DNA of 63,281 bases, the filler included, from Folioceros fuciformis (lineage: Eukaryota): the NCBI GenBank assembly GCA_049999805.1. It is 15 parts of 15 records of this genome, joined end to end, with 100 filler letters (N's around TTAATTAATTAA, not from the genome) between each part and the next. Parts side by side here need not be neighbours in the genome. Positions count along the whole stretch, not along the records: positions 1 to 17,550 come from JBNGIO010005272.1; 14 more parts are not named here. One strand, written 5' to 3'. Within the stretch, counting starts at the first letter, position 1. Each line of letters begins with the position of its first letter. Under the pieces are notes generated by a model that saw only the letters and a program-made list of their open reading frames with translations, was not told where the DNA came from and did not search any database. A program made the position numbers and the translations under genes. Positions 3,176 through 36,023 of the stretch are shown here, piece by piece.

Positions 3176-6161
3176 ATGGCCTCTACGGTGCTCAGCGCCG
3201 GGTTTGTGGAGTTCTTCATCCCTTTTGCGGCCATATTTGGCATCGGTTTCGCGCTACTGCAATGGTTTCTAGTGTCAAAGATCAGCGTCTCCCACTTCTC
3301 CTCTAACAATGGCTACTACGAAATCGAGGACGGCGTCGACCAGACTAGTATCGTGGAAAAGTGTGCGGAGATCCAAGCGGCTATCTCTTTGGGTGAGCTC
3401 CCCTGTGTAGTTCTGCTAGCGCTGCTGTATCTTTCATTCAACTTTTTTTTTTTTTTTTTCCTTTTTCTTCTAGCTCTTCGTACCCAGCATTCACGCCAAA
3501 ACAGGCTCTAGATCTAGAGCTTGAAACCCACAGTTTGCCAGCTCTGTGTGGATTTGCTGACCTTCGAAGTTTGCTACTTTCAGGAGCCGAGTCATTTCTG
3601 CAAACGGAGTACAAGTACCTCTCGTTTTTCATGCTTGCTTTCTCCATCCTCATCTTCCTGTTCCTTGGGTCAGTGGAAGGCTTCAATGATAGGGCTCTGG
3701 CGAATGCCTTTTTCACTACTCTGGCCTTTATACTGGGTGCCCTCACATCCACGCTTTCGGGCTACCTGGGCATGAAGATAGCTACTTACGCCAATGCTAG
3801 AACAACTCTCGAAGCGAGGAAGGGTGTCGGAAAAGCCTTCGTGGTTGCGTTTCGCTCCGGATCTGTTATGGGATTTTTGTTGGCCTCAAACGGACTCCTT
3901 GTTCTTTTTGTCACTATCCTTTTGTTCAGCTTGTTCTATGGCGATGACTGGGTTGGTCTTTACGAGGCGATCACCGGCTACGGCCTTGGAGCTTCTTCTG
4001 TGGCTCTTTTTGGACGGGTTGGAGGTGGTATATACACGAAAGCCGCTGATGTCGGTGCGGACCTGGTGGGGAAAGTGGAGAGGAACATTCCGGAGGATGA
4101 TCCAAGAAACCCTGCGGTTAGCTCTTTTTTCTTACGATGTGCTCCTTATTTGCCCGAGCAGTCTGTATGTCAGTTTTACCAAGAATCACGCATTTCTGTG
4201 CTGCTGGACAGGTCATTGCTGACAATGTCGGTGACAATGTGGGAGATATAGCTGGAATGGGAGCAGATCTGTTTGGGTCATTTGCGGAGTCTTCTTGTGC
4301 AGCACTAGTCATTTCCTCCCTCTCATCTTTTGGAACGCAGAGGGACTTTGTAGCTATGAGCTACCCTCTCATGATTAGTGCGTCTGGTGTTTTTGTCTGC
4401 TTCTTCACCACTCTTGCTGCCACGGACTGTTTTCCGGTTAAATCTGTGAAAGGCATTGAGCCCACTCTCAAGCGTCAGTTACTTATTTCAACGATTTTGA
4501 TGACATTCGTTATTCTCCTAGTCTCCTTTGTCACCCTCCCTGCCGAATTTTCCATCAACATAGTTGGTGGATCTGCAAAGGCTGTGAAGAGCTGGTGAGT
4601 ATGCAAACACGCGCTTTTAGGAACCAAAGCTATTTTTCCCAGCATGCTATGGAGACTGATGTTTACCTGGGTTGTTGCAGGCATATCTTTTTCTGCGTGG
4701 GCTCTGGTCTCTGGGCTGGCTTAATTATTGGATATGTTACAGAGTATTTCACGAGCAATGCCTACAGGTGGTGACGGTTTTGAATTTCTTGTCTTTTTTG
4801 GCACTGGAATGCTGTGTAGTTGAGTATGCTCACCCGTGTTTAGTCAGTTGCACTTTGTCGGAGTTCTCACAATCAACAACGTTTGCGATTTTGACAGGCC
4901 TGTGCAGGAGGTTGCCGATTCTTGTCGCACTGGCGCTGCAACAAATATTATATTCGGGCTTGCCCTTGGTTACAAGTCCGTTATTATCCCAGTGTTTGCT
5001 ATAGCGGCTGCAATCTATTTGAGTTTTAGCCTGGGAGGCTTGTATGGCATTGCTGTGGCAGCCCTTGGAATGCTCAGCACAATGGCTACTGGCCTTGCTA
5101 TTGATGCGTACGGACCAATCAGCGACAACGCGGGTGGCATTGCTGAGATGGCCGGGATGGCTCACACCATCCGTGAGCGGACTGATGCCCTCGATGCGGC
5201 CGGAAATACAACTGCTGCCATTGGAAAGGTACTTGTCTCGATGCTGCTCTTTCATTTAAGCTGGTTTGAGGAAGAAACCTGCCTCACTCTTGAGGCTTTT
5301 CATTGCAGGGATTTGCAATTGGGTCAGCTGCCCTGGTGTCACTTGCTCTGTTTGGTGCATTCGTCAGCAGAGCAGGAATTGCCAGTGTTGATGTCATGCA
5401 GCCGAAGGAATTTATTGGCCTAATTGTTGGGGCAATGCTTCCATATTGGTTTTCGTGTCTGACCATGAAAAGTGTGGGTACGGCTGCTCTGGCCATGGTG
5501 GAGGAAGTGAGGAGGCAGTTTAAGGACACTCCTGGATTGCTGGAGGGGGATACTAAACCGGATTATAAGAAGTGTGTTCAGATTTCCACTGATGCTTCCC
5601 TCCGAGAGATGATCCCACCGGGAGCGCTTGTTATGTTGTCTCCGATCGTCACTGGTTGGCTTTTCGGTGTATCTACTCTTGCAGGATTACTGGCCGGGGC
5701 TTTGGTGTCCGGCGTCCAGGTAATCATATTGTGTAGGCTAACAGATGTCTGTGGTTGTAGCTGTGCGAAGGTGGTGTTTGCTCTCCGGGAATTAATGCAA
5801 AATCTTTGTTGCAGATTGCTATCTCTGCCTCCAATACTGGCGGTGCCTGGGATAATGCGAAGAAATACATCGAGGTATCTTCAAGCCTCGTCCTTTCAGC
5901 TGTTTGTGAAAACTTGTTACCTCTCGGGTCATAACATAAAGTCGTCATGGTGGGCAGGCTGGGAATTCTGAGCATGCGAAATCTCTCGGACCAAAGGGGT
6001 CCGAAGCTCACAAAGCAGCCGTTATTGGAGACACCGTGGGGGATCCTCTGAAGGACACGTCAGGCCCTTCTTTGAACATTCTGATAAAGCTGATGGCCGT
6101 CGAATCTCTAGTTTTAGCCCCCTTTTTTGCTACTCATGGTGGCATTTTGGTTCGAAACTGA
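3176..6161 (+). CDS. AVP1: Vacuolar H+-translocating inorganic pyrophosphatase, type I (K+-dependent). Exons 3176-3392, 3584-4116, 4212-4594, 4681-4767, 4898-5228, 5309-5719, 5815-5874, 5958-6161
   Basis: Motifs [42 protein letters not shown] (Ala = K+-dependent type), [14 protein letters not shown]. All introns are GT-AG and the frame is continuous from ATG to TGA. Confidence 0.97.
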
Positions 6162-6519: not shown

Positions 6520-9500
6520 ATGGACCACTCTCAGCCCCATGGTAGCGTTATTCGCTGGGGAGACTACCAGTTGCTGCTGTTGGCCAGCGCCGTGAAGAGG
6601 CATGGTACTGGAAACTGGAGTGCTATATTTGAAGAGCTGAATTCCTGCTCGCTGAAGAACGGCATCCCCCTTGCTTTATCGCCTGAGGTGCAAATTTGCT
6701 GCTGTGTGGTTCCCTCACTGTTGCCATTAAGTTAAGGTGCCGAGGTTGCTGCGAGGTTGTCAATATCCATGGTTCGAGCCATGTTTGTTTGTTGTTTCAT
6801 TTACCTTGAACCGGGATTTTCATACAAATCTTGGCCTTGGCAGGCTTGCAAGCACAAATTCGAGGACTGGCGGGAACAACATGCAAGCTGCAGCAGCAAA
6901 AGCAGGTAGGAGGCTTCCCCTTGCTTGGTTTTACGGTAATTCGCGGTCAACTCGGGTGCCTAGCTACAAGGTAATGTACATGCAGCTGGGCTCAGAGGAT
7001 CCTGCGTCACCTTCGGTGGGAAGTGTGGAGCTGGATGACTTCTCTTTGCTTCTCTGAACGAGCTTACCCTTGATTGCGCTGTCCCAGGGATCACGAGATT
7101 TGTGAAACAGTGCTAGCAGAGCTTACGAAACTGAGGGTAACGAGCCTGAAGCGAGAACTGGAAGTCTTCGATGGGAACATCGGGTCAGCCTCCAAATCTG
7201 CGAATCGCTCCCTCAAAAAACTAGTTCATTATGACCCGTTCCCCGCAATAGACGTTGTCGGGTCTTCCTCGATGACGAGAAATGTTCAAAGTGCACTATA
7301 GGTGTTTAGAGCCCATAGTTTGCTCCTTGTGCAGGTCTTTGGAGAGAAAAATCAAAAGGCTCAGAGCAGAAAGGGACCAACAGCAGGGCGTAACAGTGAA
7401 TGAGCTACTGGTGGAGAGTCTTGCGCCGGACCTTGACCAGAATTTGGACCCTTTTCTTCAAGGGCCTGGCACAAGGTTTATCATTGCAGACTTGGACAGC
7501 AGCCATGGAAATCAGCTTGAGTCGAAATGCACAGGTGCTCTTCCTGACAGCTCCCAATCTGTGGGTCCATTATCTTCCAGGACAGGAGATTCCAAGGTGA
7601 TGGTTTCAGCATCGCCTGATGTTGAAATTGTAGCGGATCAGGTAACATTTTCAGCTGCCAACGTAGGGTATAGAATCACCCAGGATGAGGTTGATAGGGA
7701 TGACGGTAGCACAGCTGTCCAACCGGAACAAAGTGCCTGTGATAGTCAGTCTGACACTAGTCCTCGGGAGGGACCCAAGCACTTGGAGCAAGCAAGCAGC
7801 AACAGTGACTTGACAGTCGTGGATGGAGCAGTGACGGTACTCAAATCTTCCATTCAGGGTTCTAATGGTTCATCATTACCACGCTTGGATGCGGCAGATG
7901 TTCAGGATGTGTCCTTGATGTCCTCCCCTGACCTTGCTTATTGTAGGTCCGTGCTGGGTACCAATAGAAATATCAAAGACCGGCCAGTGGGTCTCAAAGA
8001 TCTGAGAATTTCACACCAGGAACATCGGGCAGGCACTTTAAGTGGTGATTCTGGTTTTGCAGTGGAGTTATTGCCAGTGGATGCAGACAATTCTTGTACT
8101 GCGAAGATCCAGGGAGATGGGATAGATGATGAAGGCAATCCGAAAGTGTTTAGTCTCGATTGTAAGCCTCAAAAGATATCCCTCGGTCCATTCCTCCATA
8201 GTAATTCGTTTCGTGAAGCTGGGCAATCGCGGATCTCTGTCATTACATTGGCCCCCGCTGCAGATCTCCTTCAAGGAAACTGCAAAGGAATCCAGGTCTG
8301 TGTGGTGAAAGATTACTCCCAGTCTGACGTAGAACTACATAGTAATAGCATCCTTGGGGATATCCAGCATCACTCTGGTGTGAAGGACATAGCCAAGCCT
8401 TCATCTATACCGTCGCAAAGGGCATGGCAACATGAAGGCATGTGCCCAGTCCATACTGTTTCTCATGGGTGCGCGGAGAAACGTGAGCGCATCTCTAAAG
8501 ATCTGGCCGTCGTGGCTGCCCACAAACAGCAGGAGTGTGATGACCAAGCAAGTTACGCACATGTTAAGGTGAAGGTGGAGGAGCGGAATACAGATCGTCA
8601 AACTGGGTGGTCTGGACACAGCTCAGATCTGCGTACTGACAATCCTTGTGAAGCTTTACAGATGCACACAACTAGTTCAGATCTTTCACGTATACCAGAG
8701 CCAGTCCCTCTATGTGGTAGTCACGAGAGCATTGGTACTGCACACGAGCATGATAAGGATGGTGATGAACTCCTGGGGAGCAGGGATTCTGGTGACAGCC
8801 AGGTGGAGAAGAGTGAGGCAGGCTCTCCTCTTGATGGTATTGATGATACTTCACCTAATAATCGGAGGAGTAAACGCGAGCCGAGGGTTCCTGGGAAACT
8901 CATTCCTTTACTCGAGTGTCTGCGAGTGATATGCATGCACAAATTGTCACCCTTGTTCAAACAGAAACAAGAAAATCAGGTACTTTGTTGGTGTTCATGC
9001 GCGCAGCAAAACGGGTTCTGAGCTTAAATTGTAAGTCTGTTGTAACCTGCTGACTCTGCCTTGGTATTGGCTGCAGGACAATTCTCGGTACCATTGCTTG
9101 ATTAAAAGGCACATGGATCTGAGTGTAATACGTGCACGGCTTGAGGAGGGTGCCTATTCTGGCAGTCTGGAGTTTTTTAGGGACATGCTTCTTATTTTCA
9201 ACAATGCTCTCGTCTACTATCAAAAGGATACTCCAGAATACTTGGCTTCCAAGGTCCTTCGTGAGGTCACTATGCAGGAAATGCAGAAAATTTTTCAAAC
9301 CGAGGCTTTAATAAAGCAAGATGGGCCTGCCACCAGAAACCGAGAGCCCAAGAAGGCAGCCGATAATTCTAAAGCTGTGACTCCAAATACTGGTTGTGAT
9401 GGACGAAGAAAGGCAAGTGTGAGGCTCTTGTCAATGGACAATCGAAGTACTGATTCTACTCTGGACTTTGAAGATGTGTCAAAAAGTGCTAGTTTGAGTG

Positions 9501-10003
9501 CCATGGGTCCTAGTACCAGCAGTAGAGGTGATGGCCCAGGTAGTACAGAGGAAGATGATGAAGTCGTTGGAAGGTTGAAGGATGTAAGGAAGGGCATTCA
9601 AAATGGAACACGGGGAAAGGTCAGGCCAGAAGTAGAGTTGAAGAACGGGCAGAAGAAGGCACGGCATACAGTTTCCAAGGATGACGAATCAGTGTCTGGC
9701 CATATAGCACCCCTTAAAGGAAAAGGGAAAGAGCACGAAGAGATGCCTTATGATGAAATCAGGAGGTTTCAAAGAATACCGACCAAAAGTCTGCTGAGGA
9801 AAGATAAAGAATTAGATCATAACGCCAAGTTGACAGTTGCAGGCTTGATAGAGGTTAAGCCGAAGGGCCAATCGGGACGGCAGCAACCCGCTTCTCCTGA
9901 AGCCAGAGGACGCCCAGGTCGGGGTTCCAAGAGGTCAGGTACACAGCTGTCAAAGGAGAGCAAAAGAGTTTATAGCCAACCAAGAAAACGAGCCAGACGA
10001 TAA
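6520..10003 (+). CDS. N-terminal SANT/Myb-like + coiled-coil + bromodomain protein (plant DNA-binding bromodomain, BRD8-like family). Exons 6520-6687, 6844-6905, (6986-7015 possible), 7088-7183, 7335-8979, 9077-10003
   Basis: WGDYQLLLLASAVKRHGTGNWSAIFEEL (SANT-like); ELTKLRVTSLKRELEVFDGNIGSLERKIKRL (coiled coil); IKRHMDLSVIRARL...FFRDMLLIFNNALVYY (bromodomain). GT-AG junctions keep the frame. Confidence 0.9.
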
Positions 10004-10439
10004 CTGGTCGCCTACAAGTTGAAAGTCTGACCTTTGCAAGGGGTGTGAATCCAGGGTATTTATTGTTATCTTCTCGGAACTATGCTTTATGTTTCCGTAT
10101 GAATAACTTATCGTTTGTGATATGTAAAGCATGCCCCTCCTAGGACGCAAACCATTTGAATATAATTGTATATTTTGACATGTCATCGTAATGGTAGATG
10201 GGATATTTCTATATGTTTGTCTCAATAAGCCTCTATTGCCTTGAGATTGGATGTAGTAGTAGGGTTGTCCTCCATGAAGGGGCAAGCGCTGGTTTCCTAG
10301 GCCATCTAGTTTCAGAGCGGCCTGGGACCTCACCCATGCACTTAATAAAGGTGGATTTATTACTCAAGGTACTCAACTCTCTTGCAACACAACACAACCC
10401 GCGGGATATAGTTTGTGTAGCCCACTCTATGGTGACCAG

Positions 10440-12019
10440 CCTTCACTAAAGTAGTGGATATGCCATGTGGAGGCTCCACTTCATGGATGACGAGCCTCCA
10501 ATCCACTCCATTTTTTGGCCCTAGTTATCCACGTCTTCATATTGCTCACTATCAGTTCACCCTGCAAGACTTTCTCTAGAACAAACATCATAATACGTTC
10601 GCTTGCTCCCTTGTGTGGCATGTGCCATAAAACTCTCCACGCAGTCACATGCATAGGCTTACTAATTAAGTTGGGGTCGAAGACCGCTAGCTCAATGTCA
10701 GCATTTCCTCTCCTAGGTCGGCGTCAACATTCCTCTCATGGATGGGCGTCAACATTTCCTCTCCTAGATCAACGTCAACATTTCCTCTCCTAGATCAGCG
10801 TCAACATTTCCTCTCTTGGATCGACGTCAACATTTCCTCTCCTGGATCGATGTCAGCATTTCCTCTCTCGGATCGGCGCCAGCATTTCCTCTCGGATCAG
10901 CGTCAGCATTTCTTGTCCCAAATCGGTGTCAGCATTTCCTCTCCTAGATTTCCTCCATTTACTTCCCTTCTTTCTGTTGTCTTGCTTCGGAAGTTCTCCT
11001 CTTTCCAAGAGGCAAAAAACTTTGTCCACCTTTTCCCAAAGGTGGGGTGGCACACTAGCTATGCATGGAACGGCCATCTTCTAGTCGGTGAGATGTTGCT
11101 TCTCATCCCTATCACTAGCATCTCCAATGACCCCGAGCATTCGGTACAAGCCATATTTCCATGTCATAGTTATTGGAGTTCCCTACTCAGCAACAATCTT
11201 CAGCTCGTCGTGTATCTTCAGCCTTGACGTTGTGGTTAGTTGGTAGGCATCACATTTCCTTCTGAGTAAACTCCGCATATATATGAGCCTCCATGCACTA
11301 ATAGTGAGAGTTGTCCGGAACTTATATGTATAGTCTTTGGATTGCGCAGGAGCTGTGATTCCCTCCAAGTACCCCCATTGTGTACTTCTGCTTCTTTAGT
11401 TTCTCACGATCAAAGTCCGAGATCGTCGGGCACTCCCTAGGATATATCATACACAATAACGGCAAGACGTCTTCCGGCATAGGCCCCTTAATCTGACGTA
11501 GCAAATGTTTCCCCTATGACTCGTCCACATGCCGGATCTAAGCATCTTTTGTCAAGTAGTCCGCAGCATGCAGCATGTTGATGGTGACCATGTCGGCGTG
11601 TGGAATACACCGTTCACGATGAGCCAATTCCCGTATGAGGTTGATGGGGTCATTATGCTGAAGTGTCCTTTCAACCCAATCACTATCCTCTAGAACAACC
11701 TTTGTAATCACATGTTTGGTTCCGCACATATGGTCTTCTTCTTTTGCCCAACCTTTGCTTTTGCCTTGTGTGGAAGACCACATGTGCAATAACCCTCCCT
11801 TGGACTATTGGTTTATATGACTTTTTTTGTTTGGGTGTATGTTTTGAGTGATAAAGTGTTCATGTACTACCGAGGCAAGGCCTTCTATACTAGAACTGTC
11901 CTTGGCCTATGATAGCACCACTCCTTGGCTTTTGGTCTTTTTCCTTTTGCAAATAACTAGTCCTTGCCCCTTGAATTGTGAATGTTAGGCTAGGCTAGAA
12001 GGTCCTTGGACCTTGGCAT
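10440..12019 (-). pseudogene. Degenerate gene with a ParB/Sulfiredoxin-like domain (VLGGNH motif), probably transposon-borne, split by a 26-bp tandem repeat
   Basis: Reading through stops gives DA*IRHVDES*GKHLLRQIK...LPLLCMIYP...YTMGVLGGNHSSCAIQRLY...AHIYAEFTQKEM*CLPTNHN, then ...PPHLWEKVDKVFCLLERGELPKQ. After the repeat it continues SKPMHVTAWRVLW...FVLEKVLQGELIVSNMK. Confidence 0.6.
10692..10948. repeat. Minisatellite, ~26-bp unit (ATCAGCGTCAACATTTCCTCTCCTAG), about 10 diverged copies
   Basis: Direct reading of tandem units. Confidence 0.9.
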
Positions 12020-13561
12020 TTTTAGAATAAAAAATTGTCTATATAAGGAGGGGGTTCTTCCTTCAACAACAGTTGTGGGGAGGTGTTGTGGGGAGGGTAG
12101 TGGGGAGGTGGCCCATTCCACAACAATGGCTAAGTATGGAATGTACACACATAGTCCAAGTAGAAATAGCAACCCTAGGTGCAGAGTCTGGACGGACCAT
12201 GAGCAGAGGAACACTAACACAGGCGGGACACAACTGGAGGAAGACCACCATTTAGCATTGTGAACATGTGTGATTCCAAGGCAAGTGGAGATTCGGCAAT
12301 TGGGTGTGACCGTTGTGGCAATTAGGAGGAGTAACAAGCACCACCATGCTAGAGAAGTTCAGGAAGCTGGCAGAGAGGTGTACGCGGGAGAGAGATGAGG
12401 CTAGGGCCATGGTCAAGAGAGAAACAGGTAGGCCGAAGAGGGCAGGGATGAACTATCGTGGTGGCTGAAACAGCTACCATTGTGGAACCAGCCACCGCAG
12501 TAGCGGAGTTGGCCACCGTCATGGAAGAAGAACCGAACACCACTAGAATGCACGTCAATCTATGATGCGTTTAAAGATGAAAGTATGATGCATTCACACC
12601 TTCAATGATACGGTCCTTACCAGTTTCCCATCATACAAATATCATTAAAAATGCCGTCATCAGAGGTTGTTTATGAAATTGTAACCTAGTTCGTGGTTCG
12701 CATCAAGTTTCGATGGCCGATACCAGTAACTTGCCTTTCTCTTCATAAACTACGGTTAAAACACTTGACTTGTACCATCACCTATACGTGCTTGGACAAT
12801 CAGGTATACAGACTCTGCCACCATTGTACTTTCCCATGGTCTTGCCTTCTTCACACCCCACTTTTGTACACACAATTTGTGCATGCTGTAGTACGAGTTT
12901 CCGACAAATGTGTTTTGACATCCATCACAGGCCACGCCCGTTTGACCTTTTGTATACATGTACATCACCATATGATTCATCATAACTACCACCTGTTAGT
13001 AAAGTTGATCAGGGCAATTCATAGCCTTCACATACTTACCTTTTCCCCGATTCAAATCATGCAAAATCCCTTTAGTATCATTATATGGTTGTCCTTATAA
13101 CAATTATACTGTATTAAAATCAAACCACATTCTACACGACCACCTTCACTGCCCCGCACATGCCTCTTGGTGCAACTCACGTACTTTCAGGGGCCCTACA
13201 ACTGTTCAAAACCCATATGCATCCCTATACCCTCCTCGACATTCCACCTCCTCCCACCTAGCCTTTCTTCAAACATCTTTGTGATGCACCTTATTGTTCT
13301 CACTCCTGCAAAGCCATCACTTGTGCATTGGCAAATATCCCAACACATTTATCCTACCACAACAAGGGTTTGCCCAATGATAACTGCACACCTTATCCCT
13401 CCCTGTCCATTGCTCTCGCTCCCGTTAGCTCTACCTTTCTGGGCTTTTTTCTGTGACGCTGATTCTCTCGCAAGCCCTGATGTCCCTCCTACACACGGAA
13501 CCTCATATGCTTGTTACATTTGGTCATCAAAGGGATTGCACAGTTCGACCTTCGCACACAG

Positions 13562-13791
13562 TGTTGTGCTAGGGCAATGTTGGTGATGAGTGAGTCCCAA
13601 GAGTGGACAGCTGGGACTCACCAAGTCCTGACCCTGGCTAGCACGCGCTTGAAGCTTGGGGTTCTATCTTGAACATTCAACATTTGTACTTGTATCCTAG
13701 TGCTTCTTCCCACTACTCTCCATGTCATAGATTGCAGCACAATCTACTGCAAGTGAGGACATCCTATGTCCATAAAATGAAAGATTCTGAT
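13562..13791 (-). repeat. ~200-bp LTR-like repeat (13562-13761) plus 30 bp of shared flank; second copy at 14791-15020
   Basis: Diverged direct repeat of 14791-15020 with TGT...GACA termini. Confidence 0.75.
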
Positions 13792-14790
13792 TTAGGTGGC
13801 ACTGCCATCGTCTTGGTCGGATTCTCATGCCTCAGGGTAGGGTTCACTTTGCAGGTATGCATCCTGGGGCTACGTTCGATAGAGACGACTTTGAGGGTAC
13901 CTTGAGAGGGACAAGGCCCTTAACTCCCCTCAAAGACTCTTACCAAAGGTTATCAGCCCATACAGGAGCTGCTGTCTTCCCATGTTGCTGCCCAACATGG
14001 GAAGACAGCAGAACTTAGGGTACAATAGCAAGGCATCATGGAAGGAGCAGCGCTGATGCAAGGGCGTGAAGCCAACTCAATTGGACGCTAGATCGTGAAG
14101 ATGATGGCTGGCGCTAGGCAAAAGGGGTAGCCAGGGCAAAAGTCCATAGTTGTTGAAGTTGCGCTGCGCAGTGTTGTAACTTGGGGAAGGCAGCTCAAAC
14201 AATGTTTTTGTGTTCTCTGGAATTGGGAGCTAGGATGAAGAACGTTTTCAGTGCCGCTGATTCCAGTGTTGCAGTTCATGGCGCAGCTTACTGACTCACC
14301 AAGCTGCGTGTGTCACGCAGATCCTTTAAAATCCAGATTGCTGCAAGTTTTTGCTGCAATCTCTTCTTTTTGTACAAGTCTTGGTTTCGAGCGCTCTTGC
14401 CTCAAGGCTTTGGTACGTCGGCGTAGTCTCCAGAACAAACACCCTCATTAGTGTTGTTCCAGGACGACTGACTAACCTCAATCAGTTTGGCGTATCAGGG
14501 AATAGTTGTCCTTGATGGTCAACCTATGACATAGCGGAAGGCTGTGGAGGATTCCATCTATTAGGGTGCATGAGGGTTGCGCAAGCAATCCAAGTGCCAA
14601 ATTCCGCCACCACCAAAGAAAAATAAGTCGAATAAGTCGGATGAGGGTTGCGTAAGCAATCTAAATGCCAAAGTCAGATGGAGAGGCAGCTAAAGTGCAT
14701 GAGGGCTGCGCAAGCAATCGAAATGCAAAGTTGGCTGCCACAAACAAACAAAAAAAACAAAAGGGTTGGATAGGTCACCTTCATGACAAC

Positions 14791-16490
14791 TGTCGTGCTA
14801 AGGCAATGTTGGTGATGAGTGAGTCCCAAGTGTGGACAACTGGGACTCACCGAGTCCTGAGCCCAGCCAGCACCCACTTGAAGCTTGGGGTTCTGGCTTG
14901 AACATTCAGCATTTGTACTTGTATCCTCGTGCTTCTTCCCACTACTCTCCATGTCACAGATTGCAGCACAATCCGCTCCAAGTGAGGACATCCTATGTCC
15001 AGAAAATGAAAGATTATGATCCCCCCCCAATTGATTGTGCCATAGTTACAGCCGGTGTAGCACAGCGAGGGCAGTACCAAAGCTGCTCAAGAACCTTCGA
15101 GAGAGGTGGATTGAGATAGAACAAATGGTAACCACCGTTGCAGTGATCACAAAGTAGCAATAACTCAGCGCCATCAATCCTCCCGCATACCTGGCATGGC
15201 TAATCTTGAGGAGGAATCCAATAGGTGGTGATGATGGTCGGTTTCAGGTTAGGAAGGTGGCAAGGAGCGCAATTTTTCATATGGTCTGTGATAGTGCGCC
15301 CATTTGACCCTTGCAGCAGCAAAACCCCATTTGGTTGGACCTCCCTGACTCGCAGCACATGACGACTGCTGACAGTGTCCAAAGTGTCCCTTGTTTGCCG
15401 TTGCAGGTATACAAAATCCCCCACTTGAAATTTGTTCAGTTGGGGTCTGAAACTACCACTGCGAGTGTATGCATACTGCAATGTGTCCCGGTGCCATGCA
15501 TGCGGAGATTGGTCATTGCCATGGGCATCACTTGCCTGAACAATGCAGCCCTCTCACCAATAGCGCGTGCCCAAGCACCAGGATCATCCAGATCCAAAAC
15601 TTCTGCCATATGCTTGGCAATAGCACTGGGTGGTATGGGCTCCCTCCCAAACAGCAAAAAGTAGGGACAGAAGTGGGCTAAGGAGGCATGTTTGCTGAGC
15701 CTGTACCCCATGGCAATGTATGGTAGGGCCAAATCCCACTCTGTCTTGGGCATCCATAAGCCCAGTTTCCTCAGCCCCTTCTTGATTGTTTGCACCATAC
15801 GCTCTGCGAGACCATCGGCTTGGGGGTGGTCTCGGCTAGTCCTGCGATAGTCAATCAATGCTGCATCTAGTAGATCTTGGAATTCTCCTCTGAATTCAGA
15901 GCCCTGATATGTCAAGCACTCAGCACAACTTCCAAAGCGCGCTAGCGCATTCTGAAGGAAAGCCTGCACTGTGCTTCTGGATGTCTTATCAGGGAGGGCC
16001 ACCACTTCAATCCACTTGCTGAAATGCTCCATCATAACAAGCATGTAGACATTGCCCCTGGGTGTATAAGGGAGTTCCCCAAGCAGGTCACAGGACCACC
16101 GAAAGAACAAACCCATGATGGGCAAAGGTTGTATCTGTGGATTCTAAATGTTGAAGGTGGTCTTAACTCTGTCACGCTCCACACAGCGAGCCACTTGTTG
16201 ATTCACTTGGGCATGCATCCCATACCAATGAAAATATGGAACTAAGAGGCTGTAGGTCCTTTTGACACCAAAGTGACCCATGCCGTCATGGACTCGACGA
16301 ATCAATTGCTCCCTCTCAGCTGGTGGAGGCATAAGATGTTCCACTCCGTTACCCATATGTCCTTGGGCTTGGTAGTACTTGCATTAACCTCCAGCTGTCC
16401 CAAGCATGACATGGCCACCAGGGCTGCCACATCAAGACCCTCTGCCTCATCGCTATCCCAATCCTGTCAGGTTGCGGTTACATCAACATG
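14791..16490 (-). mobile_element. Ty3/Gypsy 3' part: integrase (zinc-binding domain, DDE core, C-terminal domain) + PHD finger, G-tract, putative 200-bp LTR (14791-14990)
   Basis: HDGMGHFG...RCVER, WSCDLLG, EHFSKWIE, GSEF, HPQADGLAERMVQTIK. Past one stop the frame reads CQVC..CDHC..H..WYCPRC (15199-15014). Confidence 0.88.
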
Positions 16491-17550
16491 AGTGTCACTA
16501 GTAAACGATTAGAAGCGCACATCGCGACATGTAGAACAAGTAGTCTTGCCCCAGAGGCTGATGTGTGTGAGAAGACAACGTTTTGAATCAAGAAAAGAAA
16601 ATACATATACAAGGAAGTTGTAACCGTTTCATGATTAGGAATTAATTTAAACTACTCGCTAATCCAGCTAGAATAAACTTGCCGAATATTTCACATTTGG
16701 ACTGAACTAGTGATATTGATAATATCTCAATACCCCCTCTCAAGCCGAATGGGGTAATATGCTATTGAAAATCGGTAAGTACTTCCACCAGTCTATTGCC
16801 TCCATCTGTGATAAGGTGATAAGGTGCGATTTGCCAGTGATGCATAAAAGGAAGAAACCCTCGTCCACAAACATAAGACGTGCTTCAACTGACATGAAGG
16901 GGTCTGATGGCGCTTAGCAAGGTGCACGACACAGACAGACCAGGAGTTGAAGCAGAGAGCTAGTAGGACGACCAAGTCTTTAGGCAAAGGGAACGCCCGT
17001 TACAAGCACCACAAGTGCTGAAGATGCCCTCCCAATCCATGAGGTATGTTTGTGAAGAAACTTCAATACTGCTGACCTGATTGAATGTAACACTAAAGCT
17101 TCATCCAAGTGTAGTTGCGCTCCGTCGAGTCATAGGGATCTGTGGTGGCGGCAGTAGGCAACGCCCCGTCATCTAAACCCAAGGATAGGCGATGCTGCTG
17201 ATGTGATGCCTTCAACAAGTCCTTGGTAAGCAGATCTGCGACGTTCAGGGCTGTTGGCACATAGGCAAGTCGGATTACCTTCTGTTGCACTGCCTGCCGT
17301 ATGTAATGAAATTGAATTTCAATATGTTTAGATCGGGCATGGAACATTGGGTTCGCTGAAAGTGCAATGGCTGACTGATTGTCACATTGCAGGAGGGTTG
17401 GCTGAACTTGCTCCAGACCTATGCTAGCTAAAAATTGTCTGATCCAGGTGATCTCGCATGCAGCTAGGGAAAGGGCACTGTACTTGGCCTTTGTTGACGA
17501 GACACTAATGGTTGACAGCTTCTTACTTTGCCAGCTGATCGCAGAGCCAC
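16490..17550 (-). mobile_element. Ty1/Copia 3' end (RNase H, 3' UTR, PPT ~16731-16745, LTR) nested in the Gypsy element
   Basis: CDNQSAIAL..NPMFHARSKHIEIQFHYIR...NVADLLTK; PPT GCTTGAGAGGGGGT on the minus strand. Confidence 0.85.
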
Positions 17551-17594
17551 NNNNNNNNNNNNNNNNNNNNNNNNNNNNNNNNNNNNNNNNNNNN

Positions 17595-17606
17595 TTAATT
17601 AATTAA
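17595..17606. other. Artificial scaffold linker TTAATTAATTAA (stops in all six frames) inside N runs; also at 27843, 31016, 34291, 38091, 47940, 49212, 51105, 53227, 54897, 56100, 58112, 60129, 62108
   Basis: Identical 12-mer embedded in N runs 14 times. Confidence 0.97.
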
Positions 17607-19106: not shown

Positions 19107-21355
19107 ATGAGGTGCGACCACTCGCTATGCCCGGTCTTGGTCAGGGTTTGCATTTTGCCTGCCGAGGGTGGCCCTGGCTGCGGCAAATGTTTAGATCTGA
19201 AGCTGCCGCTTCATCTAGTGTTCGATCCAGTGTCATTTGTGAGTCGGGGGGCCAGATTTTGAGGNNNNNNNNNNNNNNNNNNNNNNNNNNNNNNNNNNNN
19301 NNNNNNNNNNNNNNNNNNNNNNNNNNNNNNNNNNNNNNNNNNNNNNNNNNNNNNNNNNNNNNNNCCTCCGTCTGTATGCACCGCCTCGCGTAGGGGTTGC
19401 CTTCCTTCTGACGAGTGTTTTGCTCTTATGTCCTTGCAGCTCGAAGGAGAAGCCGACCCTTGGGTATGTGTAGGATCAGGATTGTTTGCGCCTGTACGCT
19501 TTAGTTGCCCTTCTGGCTGGCGTGGTTAACTGACTTATCTTGTGCTGTGTTTTCTAGCGGTACGCGGATCAAAACCCGCAAACGGAACATCGCGGTTCCG
19601 TTAGACCCGTCAACATTTGCGGATGCTGTGGTTAAGATTTATGTCAAGCACAATGGAGACTTGGTATGTTAGCCGTTGGGGGACGGCTGTCGGTTTATTG
19701 CCACCTTTCTGCCAGTCATGTACCTGTGTTTGGTCGATTATGTTATGGCTGGGGTGTTTTGGAGCTCAGGTGTGATTAGTTTGTGACTTCGTGTGTCCTC
19801 CGTGCGCAGGAGCACATTGCCAGGGACATTGAGGCCTCAGATCTCGACTTCTCACGATATGGAGATACTTTCTTCGAGGTATGTTGAACTGTCCTAGTGT
19901 GACAAGTGCCGTGTCTGTACTCATCCGGTGCGATTCATTCACGTGAAATGCTGTCTCGTTGCAGGTCGTTTTCACAGGGGGCCGTAACCAGCCGGGCACG
20001 ACAAAGCCCGAGGAGGGAGAGAGGCAACCATTCTCTGTCCTGAACAGGGAGCCTACAAGAAACAGCATTCTTGAATATGTTCTTTATTTACAGAAAATTA
20101 TTCGGCGACGGCCATTCATGATCAAGAGTCTTGAGAATGTCATGCGTAGGCTTTTGCAGTCCCTGGTGGGTTGTTCTCCTAGGAGGTGAACGGTCAGCAG
20201 TGTCCTGCCATTCTTGTTTGTGTGCGTGGTAAAATTTAACTTGTTGATCACATTCTGACTGCAGGAGCTGTACGGAACAGAGGACCGTAAGAAGCTGGCA
20301 GTGTTCACTGCCCTGACGTTCTCGCAGAAGTTGTCCGGGCTACCACCGGAGACCATCTTTTCAGCCTTGCTTGATGACAGTCTTGTTGCTAAGGGAACTG
20401 TTCTTAGCTTTGTCACGGATGTCTTCAAGGAATATCTTGTGGAAAACAGTCTGGATGATCTTGTAGCTTTGCTAAAGAGGGCAAAGATGGAGGACCGGCT
20501 GCTGGATATTTTCCCGCCACAGAAGAGAACTGTGGAGTGTTTCGCTGAACATTTCAGGTTGGTGAAATGGTATCATTTGGTGTGCGGAGTCTTTGGAAGG
20601 AAGCTGACGTGATGTTTATATGTGCAGCAAAGAGGGTCTGGGGGTTCTGGTGGAGTACAACACGAAGAAGGTGTTTGATGTTAAACTAAGGGAACTGAGG
20701 ACTACGATGACTGATCAGATCGCTGAAAATGTGGACGTGGATGAAGTTATAGAGATTGTGAAGCAGCGCAGAAAGGAGGCGAGTCTGCCTGACATTGATG
20801 TTGTTCAAACCATATGGGATGCCATAATGGATGCCGTTCAGTGGTCCGGGAAAAATCAGCAGCAGAACTCGAATCTTGCACTACGCCAGGTGGGTGTTGG
20901 GTTGTGGGAATGCTTGGCTTTGCCCTTGTGGATGCAGGACGGACACTAAACTCGGCCGTGATGCATGTGGAAACAGGTGAAATCGTGGGGCAAGCTCCTG
21001 GGGGCCTTCTGCACATCCGCAAAGCTGGAAATGGATTTGATCTACAAGATCCAGATCCACTGCTATGAGGATGCGAAGATTATGAAGTTGTTTCCGGATA
21101 TTATTCGAGCTCTGTATGACCAGGATGTACTTGCGGAGGATACTGTTCTCATCTGGTTCAGGAAGGGGACAAATCCTAAAGGCCGGTAGGTGGTGACACC
21201 GGTGGGGATGGTTGAGAGGATGAGAAGGGTAAGAGTCTTGGGTTAGGTTGAGTTGGTGCATCTTCTGATGGAATATTGTGCGTCGCAGGCAAACATTCGT
21301 GAAGAGCCTGGAACCGTTCGTGAAGTGGCTGGAAGAAGCTGAGGAAGAAGATTAG
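19107..21355 (+). CDS. BZW2: eIF5-mimic / basic leucine zipper and W2 domain protein. Exons 19107-19111, 19440-19463, 19558-19663, 19810-19878, 19965-20165, 20265-20557, 20628-20889, 20977-21185, 21289-21355
   Basis: MSSKEKPTLGGTRIKTRKRNI, DFSRYGDTFFEV, QWSGKNQQQN and the W2 terminus YDQDVLAEDTVLIWF...FVKWLEEAEEED*. All introns are GT-AG; intron 1 spans a gap. Confidence 0.95.
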
Positions 21356-24938: not shown

Positions 24939-27798
24939 TGCCCACGCCCACACTCACGTTTGGATATACGGTTTCAATCTATGTAGAGATATCCGTATGC
25001 AACACTTTATCGATGGGATGGGTACCCATCACACTCTACTCAGGCTGTGAACCCTACCACCTTGCTTTGTGTCTGTGGCTGTCGCTTTGGTTCTGGAGGA
25101 TAAGAACTTTCTAGGCGACAAGGTGGGATAAGACAGTAGGACGACAGTGATGAGGATGGTCAGTGCCCTTCATGGGGGTAAAGGGAAGGACAATGTGTGA
25201 CGAGGATGGATGGTCGGTGGAGTGACGTTGGTGCATGCTTCAGTCCGTTGTACAACGGCTAGTGCGCAGAGTAGATTCCCTTGCTTGCCTGCCCGTTGCA
25301 TCTATTTGTCGTATTATGCAGCTTTGGGGACACCAAGGAGAGGGACTGGGATTGTGACACAGACTGACTCCTCCTCGCTTGGCTCGTGCGGAGGATAGTG
25401 GGTGGAGTGACGTTACTTCAAGTTGAACTGACTCCCCATGGGCTGGGCTTGGCTCGTGCGAAGGATGGTGGGTGGAGTGACGTTACTCCAACTTGAAGGC
25501 CAAGTTTGGGTCAGGGTACGTACGTACATGCAAAGCCAATGGGTGGAGTGACTTTAATTTACTCCAAGTTGAGGGCCTTGGGTGGGTGGAGTCATTGGGA
25601 TGCAGCTTGCTCGAATTTGAAGGGATGGCCAAGCTTGGGTCACACGAGGCACAAGGTACGTTCATACAAAGCCAATGGGTGGAGTGACGTTGCTCCAACT
25701 CCAAGTTTAGGGCCTTGGGTGGTAGAAGATATGCATGTTGTACATAACTAGTGGGTGGAGTGACGTTGCTCCAACTTGCTCAGAGCCTCGCTTAACAAGA
25801 GAAGGTACGTACGTGGCTAGATGGCGTGAGATTCCCGATTTGCTTTGCTTCGGGGCCTGAGCCTGACTTGTGTTGAATTCAAGGGGAAGGGGAAGACTGA
25901 GGACCACCTGACCGACCTGACTCCCGACCTGACCTGTTCACTACAAGGGATGGAGGACCACTATACGAACAATGGTCATTGGTGGGGCGAGGGACGGACT
26001 GACTCTCTGACTCTAATACGGGACTGACTCTCTGACTCTAATATGTACAAAGAGTACGCTAGAGTTGCAATGCATCTAGCCAACTCTTTGTTCAAACGCA
26101 GCTCAACCCGTGTTGTGCTCTGTTGCGTCTGGCAAACACGAGGGGAGGACAGGAGAAGGAAAGGGAAGGGAAGGTCTTCTCTTGGTAAACACGGAAGCTC
26201 TGACAGTCTTTGCTACTTCCCCACCTAATTCATTGATAAGGAGGAAGGACGATGGTAAGGATGGTCGGTGGGCTGCCAGTAAGTGTGTACTCCAAAGTTG
26301 CAATGAATCTAACCGGACTTTGTGAGCGTGGACTGGATGTTACAATGAACTTTGGTCCGGTTTGGGACAGGGAGAGGAAATGGAAGCTTGGAGAACACGC
26401 ACGTAAGAAGATGGCGGTGCAGGAGAGGATTAGATGAAAGGACTTCCATGGAAAGGACATACATGGTGGGTGGTGAAGCTTGCAAGAGTTGAGTGGCGTG
26501 TTGGAACATGTAGAGGACCGTGAAGTGGAGATGCATAAATAATGGCATGCATCGTGTGAGTCATACATATGCATGTATGCATATGCGAAAGGAAGAAGGA
26601 AGAAGGAAGAGGATGAGATCCGGGCCGGGGCTGCGGGCCAGGCTCGGGATCGGGTTCGAGTCAGGCTCGGGCGCCGTCACAAGGTCGGAGACGGTCGGTA
26701 CAGGGAAAACGAATAAACAAGCATGAAATATTTTGAAGTGGGGTGGAAAGTAAGGGGCATGGTGTGGTGGGTTCATGATAGGGAGGATGATTCCAGAAGG
26801 CGACAAGGGATCCAAATTTGAGCGGAGGGGACCAGAGGGACCGGCAACGTCTCTGCACACTTATCAAGTGTCCAGATGTCTGCTTATGCAGCGGACCGGG
26901 GAAGTGAGAAGGAAGGAAGAGGCCGGGAAAGCAGGAAGGAAGCACACACAACCCAATCCAAATTGGCGTACAATCCATACATACCTACATACTGTATGGG
27001 CCCAAGATCGCAGATGAGGCGGCTGTGGTTTCGGGTTCTGTGCTTTTTTTTTTCCTTGTCCCTGGCCCGGGCCCGTCGGAGCCGCAGGCGGAGACGAACG
27101 CCTGTTCCCATTCCATGCCATCCATGCAGCTTCTGTTTCCATGTACATACTCTGCAAACTGTGCAGTACATACACACACATGAATGAATGAACCGACCTT
27201 AGGACCTTAGGAAGGGAGTGAATGAAGGAGTCCCCATGAGGATGCGGATGCGGATGCGGATGGGGGGCCCGGCGGCTCCATCGGCGTTTCATTCCAGTTT
27301 GCACGCCCTACATCACGCCCCGGTTGTCGCCTGCAGGACGCAGGGAAGGAAAGAAGGAAGGAAGGAAGGAAGGCAGGCTCGTGGCTTCAAGGAGTAGGAC
27401 GATGCGCACTAAAGATGACGGATCACACCCGGATTAGGCCCGGAACCGAACCGGAACCGGATAAGAAAGAGGATGTGAGGCCAAGGCATCGGCCATGGCA
27501 CATGGCCATGGGGAAAGATGCGTGGTCTCCCCCCCCCATCACCGGGACATGTTATATATTGGGATCCCAGGCTCGCCGCCTGCCCTATCGGATCGTGGGT
27601 ACACACGCGAAGAGGTTTGGGCATTTATTATCTCCTGTACGAAACCAAACCCGCAAGCCCCGCAACCACAAGCGTCCAGCCACCGGCACAAGCCGCAGCG
27701 ACGGAAACGCGAGGAACCCCATCCCAGTCCCCTCCTCGCCTCCTGATTCCGCCCCTCCTGGCTGGCTGCGGGGCTGCCCCGCCCCGCCCCGACCTCCG
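22540..27798. repeat. Microsatellite-dense non-coding island: (GGGAA)n, (GGAGA)n, (CAGGTC)n, (CCCCGG)n, (TTAGGG)4, (AGGGCT)n, (GGCCGGGCCA)n, (CCTGG)n, (CTCACC)n, (GGATGC)n, (GGAA)n
   Basis: Direct reading. ORFs in this region are repeat translations. Confidence 0.9.
25215..25780. repeat. Array of 7 copies (some partial) of the near-palindrome TGGAGTGACGTTRCTCCA in a degenerate ~70-bp tandem repeat
   Basis: Copies start at 25218, 25403, 25473, 25544, 25587, 25680 and 25756. Confidence 0.8.
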
Positions 27799-27898
27799 NN
27801 NNNNNNNNNNNNNNNNNNNNNNNNNNNNNNNNNNNNNNNNNNTTAATTAATTAANNNNNNNNNNNNNNNNNNNNNNNNNNNNNNNNNNNNNNNNNNNN

Positions 27899-30325
27899 TG
27901 GCCTCGACAAGGTTACCTTACATCACACTAATGGTGCGTCCACATCTGTTGAAGCTTGGAAGTAGATCACTGACATCTATCAATCCACGAACGTGATGAC
28001 GCTGGTCACGGTACGCCTAGAATTCTATTCTTTGCGCATGGGCCCCAATGACAGCATTGCTCAGCACGTTAGCAAGTTTCAATATTTGCGAGCCCAGCTT
28101 GCTGCTCTTGGGACAACCATCACTGAATTTGAAGCTGTTGTTCAGTTATTGGCTAGCCTCCCGGCTAGCTACCAGACATTTGTCCTCTCTCAAAACCAAA
28201 TGGTGAGAAATGCACATCAGGCTGTGTAGTTGGGTATGGTTCCCAACATCACCGNNNNNNNNNNNNNNNNNNNNNNNNNNNNNNNNNNNNNNNNNNNNNN
28301 NNNNNNNNNNNNNNNNNNNNNNNNNNNNNNNNNNNNNNNNNNNNNNNNNNNNNNCTCAGCACCCTCTTTGTCGAAGACACCAAAGCGGCAAGGTACGTGC
28401 AACTGGCGCCAGTCCCCAGGTCATTGGGAAAGGGAGTGCAGGAAGAAGCAAGCTGGTGAGGCCAAGCGCGAACCTCGCACGGCAAATACCGTGGCGGTTT
28501 TGACTAAGGCCAAGAACCATTCTAACCGTGGCGTTGCTCTCACTGTTTGTCTTGTGACCTTTGAATACAAGAGTTCCTGGGTGATAGATTCTGCCGCGTC
28601 AGTGCACTTCTGTAGCCACAAGTCGATGTTCGCTACGTATGCAGCGTCTACTAATACTCAACGTTTCAAACTGCTTGGGGATGACTCTGGTCTTTCTATT
28701 GCGGGACATGGTTCCATCACCTTCACTTTGGATGATGGTTCCTTGATGTTTCTTACTAATGTGCTACATGTTCCCCAGATGGCCAAGAATCTTATCTCCG
28801 TTAGACAGCTCATGCAGGACGGATCCTTTCGCCTCAACTTTGGCCCTGGAGACTGTCTGTTATCTCGGACTTCTAACCCACGGGTTATTGTTGCTAAAAG
28901 TCCTCGTCATGATTTATATGTCTTTTAAAGCAAGCCCGTGCTTTCAGCGGCTGCCTCTACGGTGGTTTCCTCTCATGGAGACCAGCCTCATAGGAGCTCG
29001 CATCCAGGTGCAGCTCTCTTGTGGCATTGCCGGCTCGGGCACCTCAACCCTGCTCGACTACTTGCCACCTCCCAGCAGGACTTGTATCGGGATAAACTTC
29101 CTAAGCTTCCGTCAACACAACCTCTCTGCGAAGCTTGTGTCCTTGCTAAATAGCAAAGTTCCCCTTATCCTACTCTTCCTGCTCGTCGGTCTTCGGCACC
29201 TCTTGATTTGGTCCACATAGATTTAAATAGGTGGTCCTCTCCCTATCTCGTCTTTAGGCGGAGCAAATCACTTTATGGTTGTTGTGGATGATTTCTGTCG
29301 ATATACGTTTGCATTTCCTATCCATCTTAAGAGTGACTCGTTCAATGTGTTCTCACCCTTTGTTACAATGGCTGAGTTACAGACTGGCCGTAAACTTCGG
29401 TGTATTCGCTCCGACAATGCGGGAGAACTCAACAACCATCAGTTTCGCGACTTCTGCGAGCAGTGTGGTGTCTTGCGTCAGTTTACAGTGCCCTACACTT
29501 CTGAGCAGAACGGCGTTGCTGAGAAGGTCAATGGCGATTTGATGTTCATGGCTCGTGCCATGCTGGCATAGTCCCAAATGCCCAAGTCCTTTTGGGCTGA
29601 GGCTGTGTCTATTGTGGTGTACATTAAGAACACAGTCCTCACCAAGTCGGTTTCTGGCCGTACTCCATATGAGTGTTGGCATGGGAGCAAGCCTTTAATT
29701 TCACATCTTCGTGTTTTTGGTTGCCCTGCCTATGCTCTTGTCCCATCACAACTTTGCGACAAGCTTGATGCTCGTGCTCGCAAGTTGGTGTTTGTCGGTT
29801 ATGGCGATGACTGCAAAGCCTACAAGCTCGTGGACTTGGACTCTCGGATTCCTATCTACACCCGCACTGTCACCTTTGATGAACCTAAGATAGTGCCTGC
29901 TCTTGCAACGTCATTTGAGCCTCCTCTTGACGTGCAAGATGGTGCTTCCTCTGGCTCGAGCACTCCTTGCTCTTGTGGTGATACTTCTATTGTTCACTTT
30001 GTTCAGCCCTTTACTTTTCCGACTGTTGGTGTTCCTCCTCCTCCTGTGGCTCCTATCCCTCAAGCAGTTCTGGTGCCGCTAGTTGCTGGTTCTGCTCCCC
30101 AAGTGCAGCCCGCTCCTGAGTCACCTATTCCTGCTCGAAAGGGGGACATGGAAATAGACCACAAGGTAGTATCTGAGGACCCCCGTACGAAACAAGGTGA
30201 TGTTGAACATGTTGATTTTGAACACGTGGTGCCCCATGATATTCCTCAAGCACCTGTCACTCCTCCATCCCCACCTAGGCCCCCGGCTGCTCCTGAGCGT
30301 AGATATCCTACTCGTGTACGCCAGC
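27899..30325 (+). mobile_element. Degenerate Ty1/Copia gag-pol (UBN2 gag, zinc knuckle, protease, GAG-pre-integrase, integrase), truncated by an LTR insertion
   Basis: LLASLPASY, CNW.QSPGHWEREC, WVIDSAASVH, LWHCRLGH, VVDDFCRY, IRSDNAGE, PYTSEQNGVAE, HLRVFGC. Confidence 0.93.
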
Positions 30326-30926
30326 TGTGGAGGCAAAACCCCGGGCACTGATTGCCGACGGGTTCCACCTTTAGTGGCCACACTTATCCCACTGTCGTTG
30401 AGACATTGGGTTTCGTTCCCACGAAGGAGCGATGGGGTTCCTTGCTGCTGTGGATGGAGGGTCGGACTTGATCGACTCGATGACGGATTCGAGGGCTCCC
30501 CTCCAGCTCCGATCAGGCGTAGGACAGGCCTCGCTGTCCGGCGGTCAGCTGCACCTCTCTCGGTGCCCACAAACTCACTCCAGTCACTACAACGACTCTA
30601 ACCTCTCAGATCTGCGTCTTTCCTCACACACCTCACTCACTCTCTCACTCCAGCACCAACACCAGCAACTACCAGCCACCAGCAACGACACCACTACCTT
30701 CTACGCTTCCTACGGACTCCTCCTACCCAGCAAGAGTCACTAGACTAACCCCAAACAAAAGGAAGAAGGGAACACACTCCCCTCTGGGGTATCTCCTCCC
30801 CACAACCTTACCAGACGCCATGAGACATGGCCGGCCTACAGCACTTGACCAAGCAAGGAACAAGAGTGGACAGGTCGGGAGGAAGACACACCCTTTACAA
30901 TCAAGAGCTAGGGGCAAGCCCCTTCA
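30326..30926 (+). mobile_element. 601-bp LTR (family B; TGTGGAGGC...GCCCCTTCA) followed by internal sequence up to the gap
   Basis: TG...CA ends; highly similar copies at 31476-32095 (-), 32096-32684 (-) and 37179-37772 (+); interrupts unrelated TE ORFs. Confidence 0.8.
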
Positions 30927-31071
30927 CCCTGGTCATTACACCTTGTGATCCTACCAGACACTATACAACCGNNNNNNNNNNNNNNNNNNNNNNNNNNNNN
31001 NNNNNNNNNNNNNNNTTAATTAATTAANNNNNNNNNNNNNNNNNNNNNNNNNNNNNNNNNNNNNNNNNNNN

Positions 31072-34812: not shown

Positions 34813-34990
34813 AAGTCCCAATCTATCTTGGGCTTGGTGAGACACAACTTCCTCAATGCACGTTTGATGGTTTGCACCATCCTCTCGGCCAATCGATCTG
34901 CCTGAGGGTGATCACGACTGGTGTGCCAGTGATCAATGAGCGCAACATCTAGCAAGTCCTAGAACTCACCCCTAAATTCAGCCCCTTGGT
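34813..34990 (-). mobile_element. Gypsy integrase fragment, same family as 15014-16490
   Basis: TSRDHPQADRLAERMVQTIKRALRK. Confidence 0.85.
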
Positions 34991-34994
34991 CAGT

Positions 34995-35948: not shown

Positions 35949-36023
35949 GTCGCTCATCTCTGCTAGTTCCTGTTGTTGAGGAATCTGTAGCAGTGATCCA
36001 ATGCAGCCTATGGATCGGAACAT

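Follow-up and report, generated by a model that had tools for sequence, protein, structure and literature searches.

A probable dead fragment of a eukaryotic ParB-like gene in the genome of Folioceros fuciformis

The window, by which is meant the whole 63,281-nucleotide stretch of Folioceros fuciformis DNA analyzed here, holds ordinary genes, retroelement debris and, between them, the relic of a coding sequence that is the subject of this account. The two ordinary genes are on the plus strand: a H+-pyrophosphatase gene at 3397-5971, and a bromodomain gene that ends near position 10003 and is convergent with the relic. The retroelement debris is a fragment of a retroviral-type integrase, located at 15436-16143 on the minus strand. 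These genes agree with a plant or another streptophyte as the source. A six-frame Pfam scan over 9900-15100 returned no domain of any kind, be it a transposase, a methylase, a ParA, or another virus-like gene, and the Rfam and tRNA scans of the window were empty.

The relic lies on the minus strand and runs from ∼11690 to 10481, i.e., ∼1.2 kb, and it can be read as a single colinear coding sequence that is broken by in-frame stops (13 in all), shifts frame at least once, and has a minisatellite of 26-bp units inside it. Its first part, the ParB-like N-terminal domain (11217..11690), was recognized by profile, tblastn, and Foldseek comparisons and keeps to one frame, in which stops occur at five places: 11540, 11516, 11324, 11300, and 11252. 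Along this frame, which includes the stretches IRHVDES and GKHLL, the motifs follow in the order strand 1 (MVTINML), IRHVDE, PLLCMI, the VLGGNHSSCA core (VLGGNH at 11355-11372), IYAEFT, and NHN. Between 11084 and 11216, the frame of the N-domain gives way to that of the helical segments, with second-frame stops at 11185 and 11083; at least one shift falls in this zone, and its exact site would lie somewhere within it. Helical segment A (PPHLWEKVDKVFCLLERGELPKQ; 10973..11050) and helical segment B (HVTAWRVLW...MMFVLEKVLQGELIVSNMKTWITRAKK; 10508..10657) are both read on the minus strand in this second frame, which extends from ∼11240 to the stop at 10481..10483 and contains eight internal stops. 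The former matches the W..q..iF.mW..GeVk helix of the related proteins described below, and the latter their pW....ipvL.eV..g.lSl.em helices; the stop at 10481..10483 closes the last open stretch. Because two frames are involved and both contain stops, the chain can be read only if the frame shifts at least once, just after the NHN motif, and 13 stops are passed over.

Downstream of the closing stop, neither the full family profile nor tblastn finds homology to the relatives, so that the relic has neither the rest of the helices nor a methylase domain. Upstream of ∼11690, no relative aligns, either with the family profile run over the window or in the tblastn search with 19 relatives. These limits bear on the initial annotation, which had joined five minus-strand segments into one chain starting from an ATG at 12017..12019 with a TATA-like sequence in front of it. 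All the letters and coordinates that it quoted are in the sequence, TATATA included (∼20 bases upstream of the ATG), and four of the five segments, namely those of the core and the helical segments, hold by homology, order, strand, and spacing. The fifth finds no support: MPRSKDLLA amounts to nine codons followed by a stop, in a frame different from that of the core and inside a 122-codon stop-to-stop frame, and with no relative aligned there neither this ATG nor the TATATA in front of it is supported as part of the relic.

The homology of the core was established with several comparisons. A stop-masked translation of the relic, 210 residues long, was compared with a library of 1.84 billion representative proteins at a cutoff of E ≤ 1e-3, and 17 proteins matched, the best being P0002 (E 1.6e-10); all of them span query residues ∼53-200. 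A word-indexed protein search returned P0002 and P0015 only, and a word-indexed search with the relic gave no match. By tblastn, all 19 relatives match the same place, 11217-11636, with E-values from 3e-13 to 5e-7. The window itself provided the background for a further comparison: a profile of 13 relatives, from which the window sequence had been excluded, was run against the window, cut in six frames into 2514 overlapping chunks, and it matched the relic chunk with an E-value of 6.5e-28, against 0.92 for the best unrelated chunk. The profile aligns to 11217-11666 at 92.9 bits. In an alignment of the relic with 15 relatives, every block is colinear, and four residues of the core (G, H, A, and L) never vary; the core motif reads G-G-(N/G/S/A/L/D)-H-(S/C/G/N/Y) across the alignment and GGNHS in the relic. 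Colinear homologs of the segments, whose absence would have told against the initial reading, are thus at hand.

The helical segments call for more caution. In searches of the whole window with the sub-profiles, segment B comes first for its own (E 0.21), and segment A only third (E 3.8), one of the better matches being a non-colinear one near 40.6 kb. Within the colinear frame alone, which has 254 residues, the E-values become 0.00058 for B and 0.0081 for A. Segment A lies as far from the NHN motif as its counterpart does in the relatives (positions 65-90 in both the model and the relic), and residues 567-601 of P0010 fall by tblastn on 10538-10654, in the segment B region, with an E-value of 0.63. 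Both segments were accepted as parts of the relic on account of their order, strand, and spacing; segment A, taken alone, is a weak match, and its place in the chain would follow from these three features of the sequence. Elsewhere in the window, a helix-A-like match at 40482-40931 on the minus strand (E 0.06) and a helix-B-like match at 38102-38551 on the plus strand (E 4) were considered as a second relic. They were rejected as chance matches, since they differ in strand and break the colinear order, and neither the repeat-family search nor the family profile found a second copy within the window.

What kind of protein did the ancestor of the relic encode? Curated sequence models give no answer. 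The stop-masked translation hits no Pfam family in any of three frames, no PDB chain is matched by the relic (phmmer) or by the family profile, and the curated ParB profiles (Pfam ParB_N PF02195 or its kin) have no significant match in the relic or among 16-17 relatives. The best ParB-related Pfam hints among the relatives are DUF6551 (E 0.072) and PF08775 (E 0.16), in one member each. Structure prediction is more informative. An AlphaFold model of the relic, folded with the family alignment, has a mean pLDDT of 84.4 and a pTM of 0.77, and among the Foldseek matches listed for it in the PDB there are only proteins of the ParB/sulfiredoxin fold: ParB, Noc, sulfiredoxin, PadC, KorB, pNOB8 ParB, SbnI, free serine kinase, and 1vk1. 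The best of these has an E-value of 1.2e-2, the probabilities are 0.99-1.0, and none of the matches reaches E ≤ 1e-3. The model of an intact relative, P0011 (354 aa; pLDDT 84.0, pTM 0.73), has 13 matches at E ≤ 1e-3, all to Noc, ParB, Spo0J, or KorB. Noc 7nfu_B comes first (E 1.6e-5), followed by the ParB structures 7bnk and 6sdk, and later by Spo0J 1vz0 and KorB 8qa9.

The alignments of P0011 to Noc, ParB, and KorB extend over 260-300 columns and cover the N-domain and the subsequent helical domain, so that the model superposes on the bacterial clamps in both parts, with TM-scores that are modest (0.2-0.57) and identities of 10-17%. The canonical helical DNA-binding domain that comes after the N-domain is present in the P0011 model, and the window keeps only two decayed helices of it. 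When five phage ParB_N-methylase proteins were cut to their N-terminal halves and compared with the family by hhalign, the match was marginal (E 0.037, probability 1.4%); it pairs the family GGNHS with the phage GGHQR, and the AGLT..EA...HN block with the corresponding phage strand and helix. From the predicted models, we conclude that the family probably adopts a ParB-like fold, helical domain included, and that its membership in the curated ParB_N family is without sequence support. The assignment to the ParB/sulfiredoxin fold made in the initial annotation thus stands by structure, and a match to the Pfam ParB profile does not accompany it.

It is useful to see how the family departs from the better known proteins of this fold. 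The arginine-rich GERRxR box is the nucleotide-binding motif of CTP-binding ParB. Unlike the bacterial clamps, the family has in its place GG(N/G)H(S/C/G), without the arginines of the CTP-binding box, and for this reason nucleotide-dependent clamping with CTP should not be assumed. The relic also differs from a canonical partition ParB in that 9900-15100 contains no ParA partner domain and the 26-bp array no parS-like dyad. Sulfiredoxin is a protein of ∼100 residues with a GGCHR-type motif that includes the catalytic cysteine. The family shares with it the minimal fold, and its GGxH core resembles GGCHR; however, the relic has asparagine at the position of the catalytic cysteine, and the family is ∼300 residues longer with a helical domain and has no sequence match to sulfiredoxin. 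As for the role of the nucleotide, a phage ParB homologue is reported to activate its cognate DNA dioxygenase on double-stranded DNA, with mutation of its NTP-binding residues having no effect (PMC13229309).

The intact relatives reveal what may follow the ParB-like part. As the initial annotation had anticipated, some of them carry a DNA methyltransferase: 5 of the 19 have a C-terminal N6/N4 DNA methylase. Of the 17 relatives scanned, 3 (P0005, P0006, and P0018) end in PF01555 (N6_N4_Mtase), P0020 has it as a precomputed domain, and P0019 bears the UniRef name "DNA methylase N-4/N-6 domain-containing protein". Three of the 17 also match the NCBIfam model of the CcrM adenine methylase, and the motif-IV region of the methylase reads DFPYG in the alignment of the relatives. 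No methylase remnant (PF01555) was found within the window by the full-length family profile or tblastn, nor by the six-frame Pfam scan over 9900-15100.

Four of the relatives are proteins of Chara braunii (CBR_g3587, CBR_g8267, CBR_g44364, and CBR_g66820). They resemble the relic in the N-domain, the helical region, and the order of the segments, and they come from the streptophyte lineage; they differ from it in that the identity is 29-32%, the core is GGGH(S/C/Y)..AR, and they form a separate clade (100/99) that excludes the relic. This clade comes from a maximum-likelihood tree of the N-domain with 19 rows, from which P0003 and P0020 had been dropped by the motif filter. The relic sits there on a long branch (1.39), with no resolved position and with P0002 as its nearest neighbor, outside the well supported clade (100/99) to which all the methylase-bearing rows included in the tree belong.

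The methylase has kin among phages. A tblastn search of P0006 against 50,697 phage records matched 301 of them, and in the best 25 of the 301 the match involves the methylase part only (residues 534-789 at most), with 23-29% identity. Eight records were inspected; five have genes of ∼410-420 aa and three have the methylase only. Two of the genes, from the Streptococcus phages Javan93 and Javan69, were scanned and proved to contain ParB_N (E 4.2e-5 and 2.2e-5) together with N6_N4_Mtase, and that of Javan69 lies upstream of terminase genes. These phage proteins have the same two-domain order as the methylase-bearing relatives, their methylase domains share 24-29% identity with P0006, and hhalign pairs the NHN helix of the family with the N-containing helix of the phage proteins. 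They differ from the family in being ∼418 aa long, without the long helical middle, and in keeping an arginine after the histidine; the likeness of the N-domains is the marginal one given above. They belong to the methylase class of the "ParB-terminase locus", which Iyer and colleagues name as a source of some eukaryotic methylases (PMC4738411).

Proteins of this general kind have been reported from algal transposons. According to one paper (PMC12477816), the Ectocarpus transposon Sola1-1_Ec32 has an accessory gene for a protein of 1104 aa with a ParB-like part and a DNA methylase. In red-algal Plavaka elements, as described in a preprint (bioRxiv 10.1101/2025.02.11.637652), PAG3 combines ParB with a 2OG-oxygenase and lies beside tandem arrays of inverted repeats. 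Both resemble the family of the relic in having, in a eukaryote, a ParB-like N-terminus and a DNA-modifying domain, a likeness drawn from their descriptions only, and they resemble the relic itself in having a tandem repeat array beside or inside the gene. The relic differs from them in having no methylase and no transposon context, and its repeat units are not inverted repeats. Given these reports, the view that the locus represents an undescribed system was overstated: ParB-like proteins encoded by accessory genes of algal transposons have already been published (PMC12477816). The relic is a non-functional member of a group of accessory proteins of eukaryotic mobile elements for which published, if sparse, descriptions exist. 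Beyond the Ectocarpus paper, no paper linking ParB-like proteins with land plants was found in the literature, nor any relevant one linking them with Chara braunii, and ParB has no occurrence in the Fanzor paper PMC3627910.

Another possible connection is with DUF3723 (PF12520), which PMC9156397 presents as a conserved cargo gene of the fungal Starship elements, with its function listed as unknown. In a protein-language-model atlas, DUF3723 clusters were the nearest named ones, with 11 of the 30 hits, scores of 0.95 and 0.94, and 180 shared features for the first; PF12520 is found on 78% and 97% of their members. Viral ParB_N clusters gave another 11 hits, with a score of 0.93 and PF02195 on 35% of members. 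Like the proposed ancestor of the relic, DUF3723 is an accessory gene, carried by a giant mobile element, and the comparison is one of language-model features, with no alignment or E-value behind it. No relative has a Pfam match to PF12520, and the literature yielded no paper linking DUF3723 with ParB, so the kinship of the two is a lead only.

A peculiar component of the relic is the tandem array of 26-bp units at 10697..10949, detected by Tandem Repeats Finder (9.8 copies, 81% matches) and by the repeat-family search. It has a 78-bp super-period, equal to 26 codons, and the reading frame is the same on either side of it. The array occupies the variable linker between helical segments A and B, and a comparison of the alignments shows that this linker is ∼50-60 codons longer in the relic than in the relatives. 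Could the units be parS-like sites? None of them contains a dyad of 6 bp or more, which is why this reading was rejected for now. Given the missing dyad and a linker whose length varies among the relatives, it is simpler to suppose that a minisatellite expanded in a linker that was decaying or of low complexity; the array could in principle be the remnant of a cluster of binding sites. Terminal inverted repeats were sought around the relic as well, and three short pairs were found, at about chance level by estimate; one of them, 10277-10294 / 11955-11972, brackets the relic, and with 18 nt at 83% it was rejected as evidence.

Taken together, the relic is colinear with the first ∼400 residues of the family, that is, with an N-domain of the ParB/sulfiredoxin fold and, after it, helices whose model can be superposed on the part of bacterial ParB, Noc, and KorB that binds DNA. 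The explanation that we hold with good confidence is that it is what remains of a pseudogene, now dead, for a ParB-like protein of eukaryotes. In its present form, the relic presumably yields no protein, and no partner gene is detectable. Its ancestor would have been an accessory gene of a transposon or of an integrated virus, and with its ParB-like module the protein may have bound to, or been loaded on, the DNA of that same element. In one of the clades of relatives, and no more than possibly in the lineage of the relic, the module would have borne a CcrM-like N6-adenine/N4-cytosine DNA methylase, and the ParB-methylase layout may have been inherited from phage ParB-methylase genes located beside terminase genes. 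The initial annotation had proposed that the gene was cargo of a mobile element, and within the window this finds no backing: there is no transposase, no convincing terminal repeat, and no second copy. It would be suggested instead by analogy with the papers on algal transposons.

Which of the two origins applies? A relic that derives specifically from an endogenized large DNA virus, or from a virophage-like element, the rest of the insert having been deleted, appears rather unlikely. The nearest prokaryote-type kin of the family methylase are phage genes beside terminase, viral ParB_N clusters are among the look-alikes in the atlas, and there is no transposase nearby (9900-15100), all of which would suit a virus; however, the same interval has no further virus-like gene, and the published eukaryotic cases are accessory genes of transposons. 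The evidence does not separate a viral from a transposon origin. That a former host gene for a ParB-like protein, never mobile, simply decayed in place is improbable. The single copy in the window and the flanking bromodomain and H+-pyrophosphatase genes would agree with such a history, whereas the family is patchy and multicopy where the organisms are known (the four proteins of Chara braunii), the relic adjoins retroelement debris, and the published relatives are transposon-borne. Finally, a chance run of ParB-like motifs in noncoding DNA, or a sulfiredoxin pseudogene, has a negligible probability despite the missing Pfam match and the short motifs, for chance is refuted by the E-value of 6.5e-28 against the window's own six-frame background and by the 19 of 19 relatives that match the same place, and sulfiredoxin is disfavored by the absence of a sequence match in a PDB set that includes the human and Arabidopsis proteins and by a GGNHS core without cysteine at the sulfiredoxin position.

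One can also imagine a much wider scenario, offered here as a speculation with little chance of being right in full. The relic and its relatives would be an unmodeled branch of eukaryotic ParB, with the GG(N/G)H(S/C/G) core and the arginine box lost, that also includes the DUF3723 cargo of Starships; this branch would supply unrelated giant elements (Starship, Plavaka, Sola1, and a former element of the plant lineage) with a common accessory module that binds their own DNA, and the 26-bp array would be what is left of the binding sites of the protein.

In summary, the initial observation of a hidden ParB-like gene is confirmed in part, and the evidence supports its interpretation as largely right. 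The relic would serve as a marker of the past entry into the plant lineage of a ParB-like accessory gene of mobile DNA, a kind hitherto known from the transposons of brown, red, and green algae, and relatives are found also in the streptophyte alga Chara braunii. The scan of the relatives found no Pfam model for the ParB-like part of the family, and hence the family is overlooked by routine annotation; it is this lack of a curated model that makes the family more interesting than the modest locus from which it was approached. To learn how, in eukaryotic chromatin, a DNA methylase is directed by a ParB module, one of the intact relatives would be well suited.

The relic, a decayed ParB-like pseudogene on the minus strand (about 11690-10481), lies among ordinary genes. 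At lower coordinates, on the plus strand, are an H+-pyrophosphatase gene of several exons (3397-5971) and a bromodomain gene (7276-10003), the latter convergent with the relic and ending about 480 bases from its last open codon; a plus-strand exon of a 5MP1/2 HEAT-domain gene occurs at 20259-20612. The N count of the whole window is 2732; these letters fall into several runs, among them those near 640-750, 17550-17600 and 27790-28350, and the scaffold is therefore gapped.

Within the linker, the stretch between the relic's two helical segments, is a tandem array of 9.8 copies of a 26-bp unit (10697-10949). Three of these units make 78 bp, that is, 26 codons. The 276 bases across the array (10687-10962) hold six GATC, five CTAG and five GTYRAC sites; the density of GTYRAC over the whole window is 0.71 per kb. 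The array contains no dyad-symmetric sequence 6 bp or longer.

Just past the upstream side of the relic there is a pair of 230-nt direct repeats (13562-13791 and 14791-15020; 91% identity, spacing 1229 bases), which may be the termini of a small terminal-repeat element. Retroelement fragments, comprising the core of an integrase and an SH3-like domain of retroviral type, occur at 15436-16143 (minus strand) and 28230-30351 (plus strand), and a nest of inverted and direct repeats of 170-350 nt each, 93-97% identical, is found at about 30.3-37.8 kb (30326-37772). Farther along, there are a 31-bp tandem array of at least 13 copies and several 300-nt direct repeats, 100% identical and 645-738 bases apart (59478-60084; also 62164-63162 and 47952-48989). 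Array and repeats may represent satellite DNA or assembly duplications.

Could the window harbor a second relic? Sub-profiles of the family's helical regions gave weak matches at 40482-40931 (minus strand, first helical segment, E 0.06) and 38102-38551 (plus strand, second segment, E 4), judged to be chance because they are on opposite strands and not colinear.

A separate observation comes from the Atlas of protein-language-model features: queried with two relatives of the relic from outside the window (P0002 and P0011), it places DUF3723 (PF12520) adjoining the ParB-like family. No HMM-level match between the two was found, and a literature search returned no paper connecting DUF3723 to ParB. 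DUF3723 is an unexplained cargo gene conserved in the Starship elements of fungi (PMC9156397).
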